Below are positions 51,036 through 57,815 of a DNA stretch of 64,000 bases, piece after piece. The stretch covers positions 1,504,001 through 1,568,000 of the forward strand of contig OZ253665.1 in NCBI GenBank assembly GCA_965263295.1. Direction: 5' to 3'. Under the pieces are notes generated by a model. It had not been told where the DNA came from and made no database searches. It saw only the letters and a program-made list of their open reading frames with translations. The DNA is from Spirochaetia bacterium (GTDB lineage Bacteria > Spirochaetota > Spirochaetia > SP-2023). The first letter of the stretch is position 1. The number at the start of each line of letters is the position of its first letter. The position numbers and the translations under genes were made by a program.

Positions 51036-51452
51036 ATGTATCAGGATTTGCAGAAGTATCGCAGTAACGATGTCGTTACCGCAAACCAGGGGCGTCTGAT
51101 TGTCATGCTTTACGACGGTCTGATCAAGCAAATTGACTTGGGAACGGAAGAGTTGGGGCAAACAAAACCGCGCCTGGATGTGGTCAACAATGCCTTGTCC
51201 AAAGCCCAGCAGATTATTAACGAACTGCAGATTTCTCTCGACATGGAGCAAGGTGGGCAGATCGCCCAGAGTCTGCTGAGTTTGTATCGTTTTTTCAACC
51301 AGATTCTAGTGCAGGCGAATATTCGCAAAAACGCCGCGGGACTGAGCGCAATTCGCCAACAAATTGTCGACTTGCGCACCGCCTGGGCAGATATCCAGCT
51401 CATTCAGCGCGAGGCCCCCAGGCCGTCGGCGGGCGTCAATATTGCCGGTTAA
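51036..51452 (+). CDS. fliS: Flagellar export chaperone FliS
   Basis: VTANQGRLIVMLYDG, KAQQIINEL..SLDMEQGGQIA..LLSLY, LRTAW. Confidence 0.95.
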   Translation: MYQDLQKYRSNDVVTANQGRLIVMLYDGLIKQIDLGTEELGQTKPRLDVVNNALSKAQQIINELQISLDMEQGGQIAQSLLSLYRFFNQILVQANIRKNAAGLSAIRQQIVDLRTAWADIQLIQREAPRPSAGVNIAG

Positions 51453-51484: not shown

Positions 51485-53554
51485 ATGCAAAGTATTGGCA
51501 AGAAATATCGGACCCGCAGAGACAACGTCATTGATATTTTTGAGCATTACAAAGACAAAAGAGGCGATCTTAATGATGGCGTCGATATCGAATATCTGGA
51601 CCGTAGGATTGACTCCCTCAAAAAAAATAAATTCATGCTGGCGGTGGCCGGGGAAGTAAAAGCGGGCAAGTCGACATTCATCAACGCGCTTCTGGGCGCG
51701 GAAATCCTGCCGGTCGATGTCCTGCAGGCATCCAGTACCATCGTGGAAGTCTGCAAAGCCCCCGCGCCGTTTTTGCGCGTCAAATATTTGGACGGAACGG
51801 AAGAAAATTTTCCCCAGCAATCCCCCCCCCCCACACACACAAGCGACACGCGCGAAGCCATTGAGAAGAAAATTAAACAACGGCTGCGCCAGATATGCGC
51901 AATCCGTGAAGAATATCGTCAGATATCGACGACACAGATAGACGACGACATCATTAACAATGCTCTTCCTGCACAAGTCGATGACGCCTACGTAAATAAA
52001 TTACAAGGAGCTTCCAACGAGAAGCTTGCAGGCAAGCATGGCCTGATTAAAAAATATATTGAGCAGAGGGGCAGGAAGGTTCCAGTTGAGATTGAATTGG
52101 GCTATCCCCTGGAATGGAACTTTGACGAGCTGCGCCTCGTCGATAGCCCCGGAGTCAATGCGACTGGCGGGGTGCAGGATCGCACATACCAATTCATTGC
52201 CCAGGCCGATGCCATCCTGTTTGTGCACCCAATCAAACCCGTTGAATCTGAGTCTTTCAGAAAATTCGTCGATAATGTTATCCCTAATCGCAGCCAAGGG
52301 ATGCTGTTTCTGGTCCTGACCCACGCGGGGCCCCCCAATACTGACGATGAAGTCGAGAAGCTCTGCGCCGAGGCCAAACGACTATACGGGGATAAAATAT
52401 CCGAAGATCGCATTCTGGCTGTCGACAGTCTGCTCGGACTGATCTACAAAGACCTCGCTCGTGGTGTTCCGCTTGAAGAGATCGAAAAATGTCAAAAGAA
52501 AGAGGACGCAATCTCCATACACCAAAATCGAGCTACAAAAAAGGGTAAGAAATTGATTGATGTCGTGCGCGAAAGTTCTGGGTTTGTGGAGCTCTCTGCT
52601 GCCATTGATGAATTTTCCATGCGGGCTCCGCTAGAGAATCTGCGCGAGATTGTGGAAAAGATCAAGGCGGGGTATGAGGCGCAGGAAAACAGGTACGACG
52701 AAGATCGCAAGATGCTGGAAGATAAGCGCAAAGACCCCCAGGAGTTTGCAGTAAATATAGACCACATCACCAACGATCTTGATCAATTAAAACTATTTTT
52801 CAATGAAACTGGGGACGCATTAAAAAAGGAATGGACGGGCACCCAGGCCCCATGGAAGGACCCCGTCGAAGAACTTGAAACAAAGTATCAGCAACTCATA
52901 CGTGAAAGTCAGGGAATTGACAGCCTCAGGAAAAACTTTTTCGATGCCTCCAATTCTACGAAGGATATACAGAAGGAATATTCGCAGAAATTGAGCGCGA
53001 GGATTACAGAAGCACTTGAGGAGCAGGGCCGGGCATTCAAAGCAAAATATCAGATATCCATTCCCCAGGTTGACCTGGACGCCTTGGAGAAACACGCAAA
53101 GGAGGCGGCCTGGAGCGAGGAAGCTGTTTATGAAACCCATGAGGTAGACCGCAAGTGGGATTTTGGGGATTGGGTTTCCCTGGGATTGGCACGCTGGTTC
53201 CGAGATAACAAAGAAGAGGTAACAGTCCAGACAGGCACCAAAGAGGTGTTTGATGAAGACAAATTTCTTGAGGGCTTTAAAACAAAATGCGAGTCCAAAT
53301 TTTGTGATATCATCGTCCCAGCTCTCAAAGCCGGATTCCCTAAATACTTGGAAGAATGTTTAAATTCTTTTAAAGACGAAATGGATTCGCTCATCAATGC
53401 CCGGCAGAAGGATCTTGAGGAAGTAAAGCACAAGCAACAATCCAATCAGGAGATCATTGCGGAAATTGAGGATTTGGGCAAAAAAAAAGCGAGCATTCAG
53501 TCGGAAAAGTTGCGCTGCATCGAATTGCTGGAGGACCTGGAGAAGCTGATATGA
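51485..53554 (+). CDS. Bacterial dynamin-like GTPase
   Basis: G1 LAVAGEVKAGKSTFINALLG, G3 LVDSPG, G4-like LVLTH, long helical/coiled-coil C-terminus; SD AAGGAGGA. Confidence 0.88.
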   Translation: MQSIGKKYRTRRDNVIDIFEHYKDKRGDLNDGVDIEYLDRRIDSLKKNKFMLAVAGEVKAGKSTFINALLGAEILPVDVLQASSTIVEVCKAPAPFLRVKYLDGTEENFPQQSPPPTHTSDTREAIEKKIKQRLRQICAIREEYRQISTTQIDDDIINNALPAQVDDAYVNKLQGASNEKLAGKHGLIKKYIEQRGRKVPVEIELGYPLEWNFDELRLVDSPGVNATGGVQDRTYQFIAQADAILFVHPIKPVESESFRKFVDNVIPNRSQGMLFLVLTHAGPPNTDDEVEKLCAEAKRLYGDKISEDRILAVDSLLGLIYKDLARGVPLEEIEKCQKKEDAISIHQNRATKKGKKLIDVVRESSGFVELSAAIDEFSMRAPLENLREIVEKIKAGYEAQENRYDEDRKMLEDKRKDPQEFAVNIDHITNDLDQLKLFFNETGDALKKEWTGTQAPWKDPVEELETKYQQLIRESQGIDSLRKNFFDASNSTKDIQKEYSQKLSARITEALEEQGRAFKAKYQISIPQVDLDALEKHAKEAAWSEEAVYETHEVDRKWDFGDWVSLGLARWFRDNKEEVTVQTGTKEVFDEDKFLEGFKTKCESKFCDIIVPALKAGFPKYLEECLNSFKDEMDSLINARQKDLEEVKHKQQSNQEIIAEIEDLGKKKASIQSEKLRCIELLEDLEKLI
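51822..51840 (+). repeat. C11 homopolymer followed by (AC)4 inside the dynamin gene
   Basis: TCCCCCCCCCCCACACACAC read directly; ORF currently in frame. Confidence 0.93.
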
Positions 53555-54216
53555 TTGCCGAAAAGATCAAACAAGATATCGACAATGAGTTCGCGCAGCT
53601 CAATGAAGCGCTGCGCCAGACTCACTTAAAAGACGATTTTGACCCGTCTAAGCTCAAGGCCGATTTACGGGAGCACGTCCCCAAACAGATCAAATATAAG
53701 TCGGGCATGCTTCTGGATACACTGCTGAACTATCTCATGGCCGACGCCCAGAAGAGGATTAAGAGTGCCGATCTGCGGCTGCAAAATGCATTTTTCGACG
53801 CCGACTTCCGCAAGCGTGTCCGTGAATGGTTGGAGCGCCAGGAAAATGATCTCGCGTGGAAGCCGGATTCGGTGCCCTACGGATTTGATCCCCGTATAAA
53901 AGATGGGATGATTGCCGCGGGCATCACCTTTGTCGCCGGCACGGGCATTACCCTGACGCTTGTTCCGAGTGTTGTCGGAGCCATTGTCGCCGGCATCGTC
54001 ACCATTTTGCTTTCCGCCTTGGCCTTCAAGAGGTTCCATGACAGAGCCGCGCCGAAAGCCCGCGAGCTTGTAGTGGCAGATATTGACAAATACCTTGAGG
54101 CGACGCGCGAACAGGTCACTGAATGGCTGGGGAAAGTTGGCGCGGCCTTTGAAGATGATTTCCAAGCTTTCTGCAAGAACAATGGCTTTGCATTGGCGGG
54201 AAGGCCAAATGAATGA
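53551..54216 (+). CDS. Helical protein with a TM hairpin, translationally coupled to the dynamin-like gene
   Basis: ATGA overlap; GMIAAGITFVAGTGITLTLV and VVGAIVAGIVTILLSALAF hydrophobic helices. Confidence 0.8.
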   Translation: MIAEKIKQDIDNEFAQLNEALRQTHLKDDFDPSKLKADLREHVPKQIKYKSGMLLDTLLNYLMADAQKRIKSADLRLQNAFFDADFRKRVREWLERQENDLAWKPDSVPYGFDPRIKDGMIAAGITFVAGTGITLTLVPSVVGAIVAGIVTILLSALAFKRFHDRAAPKARELVVADIDKYLEATREQVTEWLGKVGAAFEDDFQAFCKNNGFALAGRPNE

Positions 54217-54319
54217 GGTCGCCCGCGTCAAAACGCCAAGTGAGCGCCAGTCTCTCGTCGACGATGCTTCTCAAAAGCTTTTGCCCTGGTGGTCTGCCGA
54301 CGACACGGATAGACGATGA
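54209..54319 (+). pseudogene. Truncated 5' gene fragment, possibly the start of the HerA-like ATPase
   Basis: ATG overlaps the upstream stop with an SD-like GGAAGG; ORF runs into a dynamin-derived segment and stops after 36 codons. Confidence 0.45.
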
Positions 54320-54359
54320 CATCATTAATTATGGTCTTCCCACACAAGGCGATGAAGCC
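54298..54359 (+). repeat. 62-bp diverged copy of an internal dynamin-gene segment (51927-51988)
   Basis: 53/62 identical, ungapped, by manual alignment; TTRIDDDIINYGLPTQGDEA vs TTQIDDDIINNALPAQVDDA. Confidence 0.9.
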
Positions 54360-54428
54360 AGACCGGCAGGTCATGCTCGCTTGAATGCGCATTGATCTTT
54401 CCCTTGCTCCTGACAAAGAAGATTTGCC

Positions 54429-55088
54429 ATGCACGGCCCCTCCCCCGACGAAAGATATCCGTTTCCGGGTGCGACGCACACGGTCTTCATCAAGAACGTC
54501 ATTGCAGGTGCGAACATCGAAGCCGGTGACTACAGTTATTATAACGATCCGGTAGACGCCGAACGCTTCCAGGAAAAATGCGTCCGCTATCACTTCGAGT
54601 TCATGCAGGACCGGCTGGTGATCGGGAAATTCTGCGCGATTGCGACCGGCGTGGAATTCATCATGAACGGCGCCAACCATGCGCTTGACGGCCTTTCGAC
54701 CTATCCCTTCAGCATCTTCCAGAACGGCTGGGACAAAGACTTCGATCCAGCCGTCTTTCTGAAAGGTTCGCGCGGAGGCACGGTCATCGGCAACGATGTC
54801 TGGATCGGCACGGACGCCACCATCCTGCCCGGTGTCACGGTGGGCGATGGCGCAGTTATCGGCGCAAAATCCGTTGTCGGGTCAAACATTCCGCCCTATG
54901 GCATTGCTGCGGGCAATCCCGCCCGGGTCATCAAGCAGCGGTTTGATCCGGACACAGCCGCAAGGCTGCAGCGCATCGCATGGTGGAACTGGCCGGTGGA
55001 GAAAATCACACGGCACATCAATGCCATTCGTGGTGGTGACATTGAAGCGCTGGAGCAGGCCGGTACGCAAGGCACGGAAACGATGTGA
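54429..55088 (+). CDS. Vat/CatB-related hexapeptide-repeat O-acetyltransferase (streptogramin A acetyltransferase-like)
   Basis: [56 protein letters not shown]. Confidence 0.9.
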
Positions 55089-55876
55089 TTAAGAACTCAA
55101 ATACCAAGATTGTTCACCGTCTGGTCTCAAAAGATGATCAATTGCTATTGGCGGGTTCTCTAAGCATAGATGACCATGAGGCATTGTATCTGAACAGGCT
55201 AAATACCGGTCATGCGCTGTGCCACAAAGAAGGGATGGGGCGCCCGGTAGAGTGCGCGGTTTTAGACGATCTCAAGTCCCGCGCGGTAAGTGATTATGGA
55301 GTTAAAAAGTCAATGGCCAGCTTGAAACCTGCTGGTTTGCAAGGTGATCAGGCTTATCAGATAGGCTCCTGGCTCGGCGAAGACGGCCGGAAATTGACCG
55401 TTAGATTCTTGAACTCACTGATAACGCTGCCCGCTTTTGAACTGGACAAGCTACCGAGTGTGTTTAAGAAAGAAATACAGAAATTATTGGATTCAAAAGT
55501 TTTCCCGTATCAAAGTGATGATTCATTATTTTCGGATTACTGCGTTTTGCAGATCATGGTCTTGCTAAATAAAGGAATGTATTGTCGCAACAATCCTTTT
55601 CCCCGCGGCCTTAGGGCAGCACTTGCCGCTGTTGTGGAAAGACCTAACAAAGAATCTCAAGCACAACTGTTGGAGGCCTTGAAGACTTTGTGGCAAGTAC
55701 CCGAGGCCAGGCAATTCATCGAAGATCTTATTGCGCAAAATGTTCAGTCATTATTTCAGAATCCTGCGAGAGCCGCTTTAACGGAGATTGAAAGCACAAT
55801 TTCCACGTTTTTATTAGTAGAGGATACCGACACGATAAAGAAGATTTCGCAAAAAATTCCGCAGAAACTGGTTTAA
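55082..55876 (+). pseudogene. C-terminal remnant of a HerA/DUF87-like P-loop ATPase
   Basis: Begins [16 protein letters not shown]...LNTGHAL, the post-Walker-B segment of HerA-like ATPases; no Walker A/B present upstream. Confidence 0.7.
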
Positions 55877-55912
55877 GGGCCTGGACCCAATTCTAAAAAA
55901 TGGAGGTGATAC

Positions 55913-56581
55913 ATGCTTGAAAAACTTAGTGCGAGTGCATCCAGGGAAGTGGCTCGCATAGGCGAAGCTTTCAAAGAGACAGCTATTGAGAGAACTAAGG
56001 AGCTGCCGCAATTTAGCATGGAGACTATCGAGAATAGTTCTTTGGAGAGTTTGAGGGCACAAAATGAATCTCGTCTTGCAGAGACGGCGCTCAAAGAGCA
56101 AACTGAGACAGAGAGAGACGCAGGCACTGAGACCAAGGGGCTGACAGAAGAAGAAAAACAACAAATCAAGGATGAAACTGGTTGGTCTGATGAAGTCATT
56201 GATGCAATTCGCTCAACGGAGGAATGTGATGTTTATAAGAATGCCGGGCTCCGGGAAAATGAGATAAATGGCAGGGAATGTCTAGTTAGAAGTGATATTG
56301 ATTGGGATCGGCAAGACGATATGGGACGTACCAATAGAGAGAGGGCTGAGGCGGGTCTTTCTCCAATCAATAAAGATGGAGACACCATTGAATTACACCA
56401 TATTGGGCAGAAGAGCGATGCTTCTCTCGCCGAATTAACTCCGGATGAACACAGAAGTAAAGAAAATTATTCGGTATTGCACGACACAAAAAAAGATTCT
56501 GAAATAGATCGAGATGTATTCAGCGGTGAACGAAGCGATCATTGGAAGGCAAGGGCAAACGTGGGAGGACAAAATGCATGA
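55913..56581 (+). CDS. HNH/EndoVII-fold nuclease with LHH motif (polymorphic-toxin-type domain)
   Basis: GRTN.ER...GLSP...DG..IELHHIGQ....LAEL...EH, VLH, SEIDR..F..ER..HWK. Confidence 0.9.
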   Translation: MLEKLSASASREVARIGEAFKETAIERTKELPQFSMETIENSSLESLRAQNESRLAETALKEQTETERDAGTETKGLTEEEKQQIKDETGWSDEVIDAIRSTEECDVYKNAGLRENEINGRECLVRSDIDWDRQDDMGRTNRERAEAGLSPINKDGDTIELHHIGQKSDASLAELTPDEHRSKENYSVLHDTKKDSEIDRDVFSGERSDHWKARANVGGQNA

Positions 56582-56975
56582 TAGCATTATTGAGGCAATT
56601 GAAAAGCGATTTAAATTGTACAAGACAAAGGGTGCATCTGACGAGCTTATCGCAGAGGCAGAGAGGCAGCTGGGCTTAAACTTTGCTGATGATTATAAAG
56701 AATACCTATCTCATTTTGGGGCAATATCATTTGGCTCCACGGAACTGACAGGATTGAATATTGGCAGTTATGCAAATGTCGTCAGTGTCACACTAAAAGA
56801 AATTCAAAGAAATAACTCATTCCCCAAAGGATCTATTGTCTTGGAGAATACAGGCATGGAAGGCTTCTTGGTATTGCAGAAAGAAGATGGAGAAGTGTAT
56901 GGATGGCTAGACGGGAAAAAAAAGGATACATTCCCGAATTTACAGGCATTTTTGAGTAGCAAGATTAGCAATTAG
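56574..56975 (+). CDS. SMI1/KNR4 (SUKH) family immunity protein
   Basis: GASDELIAEAERQLGLNFADDYKEYL..FG motif; overlaps the nuclease stop; SD GGAGGA. Confidence 0.9.
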   Translation: MHDSIIEAIEKRFKLYKTKGASDELIAEAERQLGLNFADDYKEYLSHFGAISFGSTELTGLNIGSYANVVSVTLKEIQRNNSFPKGSIVLENTGMEGFLVLQKEDGEVYGWLDGKKKDTFPNLQAFLSSKISN

Positions 56976-57098: not shown

Positions 57099-57815
57099 TC
57101 AGTCTGCTTCGCCTTTGAGGAACTGCAAGAGCAGCTTACATGCCCGCATGCGGTGGGATAATAAGTTCTTTTGCCAAGGTTGCAATTCGGCCAGCGTTTT
57201 TCCTGCAAGCTGCTCTGCAAGGTGGGTGCTGTCATGGTGAGTGGCCTTGTTGATTTCAGCTTTGTGTATTTCAAATATGGGGTCGTAGCCAAAGGCATCG
57301 CCAGATAAGCTGCGCGGTTCTTTTGTTATCTGGCCCTGAATGCCAGATTGTGTGCTGAAAAGCATGTTTTTTGATTTTTGTTGCGGTCCGAGCAGCACCA
57401 GGCAGCAGATAAAACGTGCACTGCGCTCTGGGCTGGCCGCTTTTGCCAGTTCGTCGAGCAGACGGGTGTTGCGTTCGGCAGCAGAAAGTTTTTTGCCACC
57501 GTAGCGGGCGCTATAGACTCCAGGGCGTTCTTGCAGCGCTGCCACTTCCAAACCAGAGTCATCGGCCAATATCCATTTATTGGGACAGAGGGCCTGGACA
57601 GCTCTTGCCTTGAGCAGGGCGTTACCCCAGTAAGTCTGGGCGTCTTCGTCGCAGTCGAAAGCCGGAGCACTTTGGATCTGCCAGTTTTTTAGTAATTGAA
57701 CGAATTCCTGCCGTTTGTGCTCATTTTGACTAGCCAGAATGACGGTCTGCGAAAAAACCTCAGAAGAAGGAGAGGAAGACATGACCGGGTCTCCTAAGCG
57801 ATATCTTGTCCCCAT
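57099..57815 (-). CDS. rdgB: dITP/XTP pyrophosphatase (Ham1 family)
   Basis: LASQNEHKRQE, NALLKA, ADDSGLEV, PGVYSARY, FGYDPIF, KNLLSHR. Confidence 0.94.
   Translation of the reverse strand: MGTRYRLGDPVMSSSPSSEVFSQTVILASQNEHKRQEFVQLLKNWQIQSAPAFDCDEDAQTYWGNALLKARAVQALCPNKWILADDSGLEVAALQERPGVYSARYGGKKLSAAERNTRLLDELAKAASPERSARFICCLVLLGPQQKSKNMLFSTQSGIQGQITKEPRSLSGDAFGYDPIFEIHKAEINKATHHDSTHLAEQLAGKTLAELQPWQKNLLSHRMRACKLLLQFLKGEAD

Follow-up and report, generated by a model that had tools for sequence, protein, structure and literature searches.

A recurrent cassette of dynamin-like GTPase, VirB4-like ATPase and polymorphic nuclease toxin, a candidate toxin delivery system, and its relic in a spirochaete genome

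Polymorphic toxin systems combine a conserved N-terminal leader, swappable C-terminal nuclease tips and SUKH-type immunity genes located directly behind the toxin, and type VII secretion, including its mobile WXG versions, places a motor of the FtsK/HerA superfamily next to nuclease toxin and immunity genes in many phyla (accessible part of PMC3482391). In type IV secretion, a small membrane-hairpin gene (VirB3) precedes the VirB4 ATPase (TrwK of R388; PDB 7o42, 8rtd), and in defence, dynamin-like GTPases encoded in variable islands are known from Eleos/LeoABC (accessible part of bioRxiv 10.1101/2022.05.11.491447) and HerA-superfamily motors beside nucleases from Sir2-HerA, DUF4297-HerA, MADS (mad8) and DndH. 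Here, a cassette that resembles each of these in part is described, starting from a 64,000-nucleotide stretch of a Spirochaetia bacterium genome (GCA_965263295.1, contig OZ253665.1, positions 1,504,001 to 1,568,000; hereafter the window), which encodes a dynamin-like GTPase, a transmembrane (TM) partner, the remains of a VirB4-like ATPase, a nuclease toxin and an immunity protein. The cassette is real, recurrent and widespread across phyla, and we lean towards reading its intact form as a self-contained mobile polymorphic-toxin delivery system, the motor ring of which would form a β-barrel conduit.

The toxin-immunity half of the cassette is of a known kind; for the adjoining machine, no counterpart was found among the secretion and defence systems described so far. 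A variable C-terminal toxin domain stands behind a conserved N-terminal part, and an immunity gene that is swapped together with the tip lies directly downstream (individual loci are denoted by L numbers; exceptions L217 and L219). Unlike typical polymorphic toxins, those of the cassette comprise only 170-390 amino acids (aa), carry no RHS, LXG/WXG, haemagglutinin or signal peptide, and are linked to a dynamin and a VirB4-like ATPase. Pfam matches of the toxins scanned include no known trafficking domain, and the window toxin has no hydrophobic segment, at its N-terminus or elsewhere, which bears out the initial annotation of this DNA in its claim that a recognisable delivery domain is lacking. 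In its accessible part, Zhang et al. 2012 (PMC3482391) mentions neither dynamin nor VirB4. Both domains of the ATPase match TrwK/VirB4 at the level of fold, with 12% identity, but the cassette protein adds a long Ser/Thr/Gly insert and a helical C-domain, its match to NCBIfam VirB4_plasma is far under the cut-off, and no channel, pilin or coupling genes of the VirB6-VirB11 type were found among the scanned neighbours at the loci themselves. In contrast to type VII secretion, the motor has one ATPase domain and not three (EssC), and no scanned toxin or neighbour had a Pfam match to WXG100 or LXG. Eleos consists of two dynamin-like genes alone (same preprint, accessible part), whereas the cassette continues with ATPase, toxin and immunity genes; in place of the two consecutive LeoA and LeoBC matches that mark Eleos, the window has one dynamin and weak matches to LeoBC and LeoB, which cover 39 to 189 residues with scores of 35 and 15 bits, and the two-dynamin variants L187 and L214 give one weak LeoA match or none. 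HerA-coupled defence systems differ from the cassette in its VirB4-type N-domain and its polymorphic tips with immunity: HerA_antiphage scores 25-51 bits against a cut-off of 800, the mad8/HerA matches are partial, no scanned partner matches Nezha, DUF4297-HerA or MADS, and the accessible part of the article on "HerA/FtsK capture" (PMC10853773) has no occurrence of dynamin, GTPase, VirB4, SUKH or polymorphic. The NCBIfam family NF033849 (ser_rich_anae_1), large proteins with a Ser-rich middle named from composition only, is the top NCBIfam match in three of the four ATPases that match it well, at 44-115 bits against a cut-off of 650. In line with the initial annotation, to which the five-gene combination was not known as a named system, neither PADLOC scans nor NCBIfam models gave one covering the core at cut-off. 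The literature yielded no description of the cassette, subscription papers lying largely outside the search, so that a mention in a survey is possible; it is apparently undescribed. A 2004 treatment of the FtsK-HerA families by Iyer et al. reportedly discusses ATPases next to GTPases.

Recurrence was assessed from two anchors. A single-protein search of genome contigs returned no match, but a search of genomes, metagenomes and viral contigs with an alignment of 45 dynamin homologues succeeded. The close set comprises 27 loci (L002-L010, L081-L097, L159), seven of which end before the ATPase position, leaving 20 that are informative. The ATPase is present in 19 of these 20 (three ATPases being cut by contig ends), as is the TM gene (19/20, the exception being L008), and a pair of toxin and immunity-type genes ends each of the 16 loci with complete downstream DNA; as a control, only 3 of 134 loci of distant dynamins, two of the three being duplicates, have the ATPase. 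Indirect linkage points the same way, as 49 of 84 dynamin matches on contigs of at least 6 kb have a longest contig exactly equal in size to that of one of 119 ATPase matches. The complete cassette has five genes in approximately 6.6-6.9 kb, and its hosts include a Legionella metagenome-assembled genome, Halopseudomonas, Tenacibaculum, Latescibacterota and Bacteroidales; Vibrio parahaemolyticus has homologues of dynamin, TM protein and ATPase. The coupling of dynamin, ATPase and toxin is strong and not obligatory, and the core recurs with interchangeable toxin/immunity pairs, the pattern by which the initial annotation had proposed to recognise a system.

From the side of the ATPase, a 16-row profile was compared with six phylum samples totalling 1370 genomes, the best few candidates per genome being scored and the sample centres excluded. 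Matches were found in 7/300, 2/250, 6/250, 3/300, 1/120 and 10/150 genomes, 29 in all. One to three dynamin genes share the operon in 14 of the 29 loci, downstream of the ATPase in five loci of the Campylobacter-centred sample and upstream otherwise. Directly behind the ATPase, 13 of these 14 loci have a toxin-type gene (eight called by a Pfam nuclease match, one of them weak, one by length and start resembling L159, and four by BLAST to other tips), L197 being decayed, and an immunity-type gene follows in 11 of the 13. One further locus has toxin and immunity genes, its upstream DNA being cut by the contig end, and the remaining 14 show neither dynamin nor nuclease-immunity pair among the listed genes (three contigs end nearby), most of them encoding a Gly/Ser-rich amphipathic protein instead. 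Among eight plasmids examined out of 44 with matches, Lactococcus cremoris pB26B, an E. coli plasmid and Treponema saccharophilum pTS2 carry the order dynamin, dynamin, small gene(s), ATPase, nuclease and immunity-type gene, an Exiguobacterium plasmid has an unassigned gene followed by ATPase, nuclease and immunity, and four show other contexts; the E. coli copy occurs in one of 5426 genomes. A sample of 200 genomes from an archaeal phylum contained a single ATPase, next to which neither a dynamin nor a known tip is encoded. With the N-domain profile, the ATPase family has 1026 clusters at 50% identity (E up to 1e-30), and when 63 motor domains were placed in a quick tree (L172, L197, L202, L203 and L209, being partial or duplicate, were left out), the dynamin-toxin type was spread over three or more deep clades, the toxin-less Gly/Ser type forming one (support 99).

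Several other contexts of the ATPase were observed alongside. A sister system (L191, L192, L200, L201, L207, L208, L210-L212, L220-L223) has the ATPase with neither hydrophobic tip, dynamin nor nuclease, next to a protein of about 220 aa, mostly with a Gly/Ser-rich amphipathic N-terminus, and large unassigned proteins; Pfam, PADLOC and NCBIfam scans of examples gave no name. In viral contigs (L165:7731-14731, L167, L168), genes for an acidic protein, a protein with an Ig domain and an Hsp70 come after the ATPase; in the archaeal locus (L241:1802-8833) a 1245-aa unassigned protein does, and in L205:401-6619 the ATPase stands behind a GAP1-N2/GAP1-M protein, a link to GTPase-centred conflict systems.

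The exchange of tips is seen most clearly in the 16 complete dynamin-anchored loci, which have at least six different tips: LHH in five, WHH/colicin DNase in four, Endonuclea_NS_2 in one, HNH, just below the cut-off, in one, and two further kinds with no Pfam match, presumably nucleases by their motifs, in four loci and one locus. The second genes of these loci encode SUKH (nine), YezG (one), DUF7832-like (four), DUF7738-like (one, weak) and unassigned (one) proteins, the last six being called immunity by position. Over all loci together, the tips include LHH, WHH/colicin DNase, Endonuclea_NS_2, HNH and three with no good Pfam match, and the immunity types SUKH, YezG, PoNi and DUF6985. Compared with L002, L003, L081 and L087, the window is 46-53% identical in the dynamin, 55-61% in the TM protein, 48-58% in the ATPase remnant and 53-63% in the toxin leader, but only 21-25% in the tip and 15-23% in the immunity protein, which are unrelated; compared with L083, L084 and L086, the tip (65-66%) and immunity protein (50-53%) are close and the cores more distant. 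Since the leader matches one subgroup and the tip and immunity protein another, a crossover between leader and tip is indicated for the window toxin. Tip and immunity protein co-vary with rho 0.75. Genes for HExxH metallopeptidase-like cargo, alone or before a nuclease tip, were also seen (L096:11877-13055, L164:10743-11780, L009:6636-7697, L171, L177).

The intact 1050-aa ATPase of L002 is modelled (predicted local distance difference test, pLDDT, 78) as an alpha/beta N-domain, a motor core and a helical C-domain. The motor core matches DndH-C (Z 32.5) and VirB4 (Z 32.3) before HerA (26.4), and the top Foldseek rows for the whole protein are full-length TrwK/VirB4. Folded alone (pLDDT 77), the N-domain has TrwK/VirB4 as its sole match, at Z 15.6 and a root-mean-square deviation of 3.8 over 251 aligned residues, the next row scoring 8.0. 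By these models, the ATPase is VirB4-like end to end and not a HAS-barrel HerA; it has a single Walker A/B domain, with Walker A present in 121 of 121 close homologues.

Between two helices of the N-domain lies a symmetric Ser/Thr/Gly-rich insert (L002 residues 212-302), 57-242 residues long across the family. With places numbered from one or the other anchor and no alignment made, 58 sequences (five of 63 were dropped as near-duplicates or insert-less) show over 34 residues mostly Ser, Thr or Gly and hardly ever hydrophobic residues at odd places, and large residues and hardly ever Gly at even places. Against shuffles, even lags reach z +6 to +15 and odd lags z -8 to -10, and in the 121 close homologues the share of Ser, Thr and Gly alternates between 0.83 and 0.28. 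A hydrophobic window of at least 1.0 is present in 85 of the 121, at relative place 0.48+-0.08. A central hydrophobic tip occurs in 26 of 36 dynamin-toxin ATPases (relative place 0.48+-0.12), 4/5 toxin-only and 4/6 other ATPases, and in 0/13 of the Gly/Ser type and 0/3 linked to Hsp70, class labels having been set before the count and kin not being independent. Of the 45 distinct insert lengths in the wide set, 23 are 2 mod 4. The insert may be read from this pattern as a long β-hairpin, the turn of which would enter a membrane, and which would join others in a ring to form a tube, smooth and polar on the inside. The insert may be likened to the stems of aerolysin-type β-pore-forming toxins, Ser/Thr-rich alternating hairpins with a hydrophobic turn, but would differ from them in being grafted into an ATP motor. 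Fold comparison of the N-domain gave no match to pore-forming toxins, which says little, the insert being poorly modelled.

On the favoured reading as a delivery system, the ATPase would assemble as a ring, as VirB4 and HerA do, and the inserts would zip into a β-barrel tube of roughly 10-30 nm with small residues lining the lumen and the tip entering a membrane. The motor might then bind the toxin leader and thread the unfolded nuclease through the tube, thereby exporting the toxin, while the dynamin and its hairpin partner could tether, bend or fuse membranes until the tip reaches a neighbour's cell or vesicle, and immunity would protect the producer and its kin. A bolder version, put forward tentatively, is that of a minimal new protein-injection machine, in which a VirB4-like ring with its own β-barrel needle of adjustable length and membrane-piercing tip, assisted by dynamin, carries swappable nucleases from one bacterium to another, whichever envelope type they have, and a sister clade with neither dynamin nor tip moves other cargo.

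A number of observations weigh against delivery through such a barrel. The AlphaFold monomer models, full-length and of the N-domain alone, leave the insert at pLDDT <50, so the barrel is read from the sequence pattern; the 2 mod 4 length rule is weak in the close set (12/28, p 0.03), and the length of the insert shows no relation to the type of envelope (152 vs 159 vs 82). L004 has dynamin and TM genes with no ATPase, genome-wide as well, L166, L170 and L175 have ATPase and toxin with no dynamin, and the toxin-type genes L217:5153-5983 and L219:9181-9975, relatives of the tip that is paired with PoNi in L109, are followed by no immunity gene. The C-terminal motif of the leader is common to ten related loci and not family-wide; in these ten the leader tracks the ATPase C-terminus (rho 0.71), possibly by mere linkage, and the few downstream genes listed include no arrays of orphan toxin cassettes. 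Hosts with one membrane (Lactococcus, L186) and hosts with two (E. coli, Halopseudomonas) have the same gene set, with no channel gene, a problem of topology to which tethering, fusion or vesicle release driven by the dynamin could be the answer. Finally, five of the 33 dynamin-toxin loci (L002, L003, L009, L109, L215) lie next to WYL regulators, as do toxin-less loci, and L006 is located inside a restriction cluster, neighbours that fit defence.

The strongest alternative, unlikely as it appears, is one of defence: intracellular suicide against phages or plasmids, in which infection would prompt the ATPase, the dynamin serving as a sensor or guarding the membrane, to free the nuclease from its immunity protein or to open its barrel in the membrane of its own cell. 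Protection against phage is known for dynamin pairs (Eleos) and for DynA (bioRxiv 10.1101/2022.05.11.491447, accessible part). The regulators and restriction genes just named, the occurrence of the same genes in monoderms and diderms, the patchy distribution (1-7% of sampled genomes), the near tie of DndH-C with VirB4 for the motor core and weak PADLOC matches to LeoBC, LeoB, mad8 and HerA agree with this; however, every PADLOC match is partial, the hydrophobic tip accompanies the presence of a toxin, and releasing a nuclease within one cytoplasm requires no long lumen-lined stem. SUKH, YezG and PoNi, moreover, are members of the interbacterial toxin pool, from which the tips and immunity proteins are drawn.

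It is improbable that separable modules merely travel together with no shared machine, dynamin and TM protein as a repair or defence pair and ATPase with toxin/immunity as an addiction unit. The dynamin-only and dynamin-less loci listed above, the varying type and position of the dynamin (one to three copies, upstream or downstream), its open frame in the window despite the loss of the motor and the divergent dynamin allele of a second strain (X3, below) would suit such modules, but the link is kept in at least three deep ATPase clades of the quick tree with different dynamins and gene orders, stops and starts overlap, and toxin-less clades have no dynamins. A VirB4/HerA-like ring that moves DNA in Ced-like uptake or exchange after the nuclease kills or cuts, with the dynamin joining cells, is very improbable, since the DNA pumping of HerA/TrwB relatives and sub-threshold NCBIfam matches to CedD, VirB4 of integrative and conjugative elements and HerA are outweighed by the absence of relaxase, VirB6, CedA and pilin among the listed neighbours, the geometric estimate that a 12-strand barrel is too narrow for double-stranded DNA, and the weapon-like exchange of nuclease tips with cognate immunity.

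In the window itself, the co-oriented, coupled arrangement initially described holds: the named parts are at their places, all on the plus strand, with overlaps at 53551, 54209 and 56574, between FliS and Ham1/RdgB genes (Table 1); genes for tRNA-Ser and tRNA-Arg lie beyond rdgB. The listed dynamin, TM partner, nuclease and SUKH protein stand; the HerA-like label of the ATPase gives way to VirB4-like, and an acetyltransferase had gone unlisted. The best homologue of the dynamin is 52% identical (474 homologues among 8000 scored candidates). The TM partner has a weak PADLOC match to LeoB (E 0.0023) and homologues in Atlas clusters that all lack a name; no solved relative was found, and its profile does not match the cassette's own dynamin (prob 0.1). 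By position, it may resemble VirB3 or the tip half of a split dynamin. Promoter and terminator scans were close to chance (11 vs 7.3 and 9 vs 7.4).

Table 1. Features of the cassette and its flanks; positions are those of the window
Feature	Position	Strand	Remarks
FliS gene (fliS)	51036-51452		left flank of cassette
Bacterial dynamin-like GTPase, 689 aa, frame open	51485-53554	+	Pfam Dynamin_N E 5.6e-20; G1 motif at residue 56; DxPG at 220
Membrane-hairpin (TM) partner, 221 aa, family with no name	53551-54216	+	hydropathy peak 2.6; hydrophobic windows from residues 119-145
VirB4-like ATPase, N-terminal stub, 36 codons	54209-54319	+	53% over 34 aa vs L002 ATPase residues 1-32
62-nt diverged copy of internal dynamin segment, left deletion junction	54298-54359	+	85% identical to 51927-51988
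Vat/CatB-like hexapeptide O-acetyltransferase, 219 aa	54429-55088	+	NF000311 260 bits vs cut-off 300
ATPase C-terminal remnant (263-aa open reading frame)	55082-55876	+	57% over 264 aa vs L002 ATPase residues 779-1042
Polymorphic toxin, 222 aa: cassette-specific leader of ~51 aa and LHH nuclease tip	55913-56581	+	Pfam LHH 140-216, E 9.4e-23
SUKH_5 (SMI1/KNR4) immunity protein, 133 aa	56574-56975	+	Pfam E 5.3e-20
Ham1/RdgB gene (rdgB)	57099-57815	minus	right flank of cassette

The ATPase, already called broken in the initial annotation, is in a worse state than stated there, only a stub and a C-terminal remnant being left. Relative to the L002 protein, residues 33-778 (~745), both Walker motifs included, are missing, and the equivalents of residues 1-32 and 779-1042 remain, the latter being the end of the motor domain and the helical C-domain with neither Walker A nor B. 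About 780 bp replace the deleted centre, namely the 62-nt dynamin-derived piece and the acetyltransferase gene; the acetyltransferase, with a GC content at third codon positions of 0.71 against 0.38-0.62 in the cassette genes, is foreign to the cassette and, missing the Vat cut-off, only Vat-like. Its stop overlaps a possible GTG start of the remnant, which may therefore still be translated. No second ATPase copy was found in the 2.41-Mb genome. Contigs from runs X1 and X2 (one sample) and X3 (a second sample of the same study, with many single-nucleotide polymorphisms) span the replaced stretch, which rules out an assembly error as the cause; run X4, with part of the stretch only and a depth of ~2, was left out. 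On a 480-kb contig listed in the protein collection, the acetyltransferase is nearly identical, the toxin is shortened and the dynamin comprises 379 aa. As the motor centre is gone and the contigs of the second strain show the same state, the local copy is a relic common to strains; it is unable to act as a motor, and the locus here at most retains immunity, a non-exported toxin and the dynamin pair.

The dynamin of strain X3 has divergent replaced stretches at 52445-52531 and 53162-53342 with nearly identical flanks; the second replacement is also on a minor X1 contig and lies in the region most variable among dynamin homologues. The dynamin was not found in 40 relatives, three of them congeners. 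In each of the three congeners (L236-L238) the 3' side of fliS holds different genes, and rdgB lies elsewhere in the two where it was located; an empty site is not definable because these neighbours differ, and the site behind fliS looks like a variable spot.

Intact copies are available in tractable, harmless hosts, namely on the Lactococcus cremoris plasmid pB26B and in Halopseudomonas xiamenensis. If the toxin is delivered, an apparatus of three genes would accomplish a task that takes many genes in the type IV, VI and VII systems; a single polypeptide would serve as both motor and conduit, and bacterial dynamins, the roles of which are for the most part open, could be tested for a part in attacks of one cell on another. 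If the cassette acts instead as a defence inside the cell, this too would be new, namely an immune system that takes its weapons from the interbacterial toxin pool.

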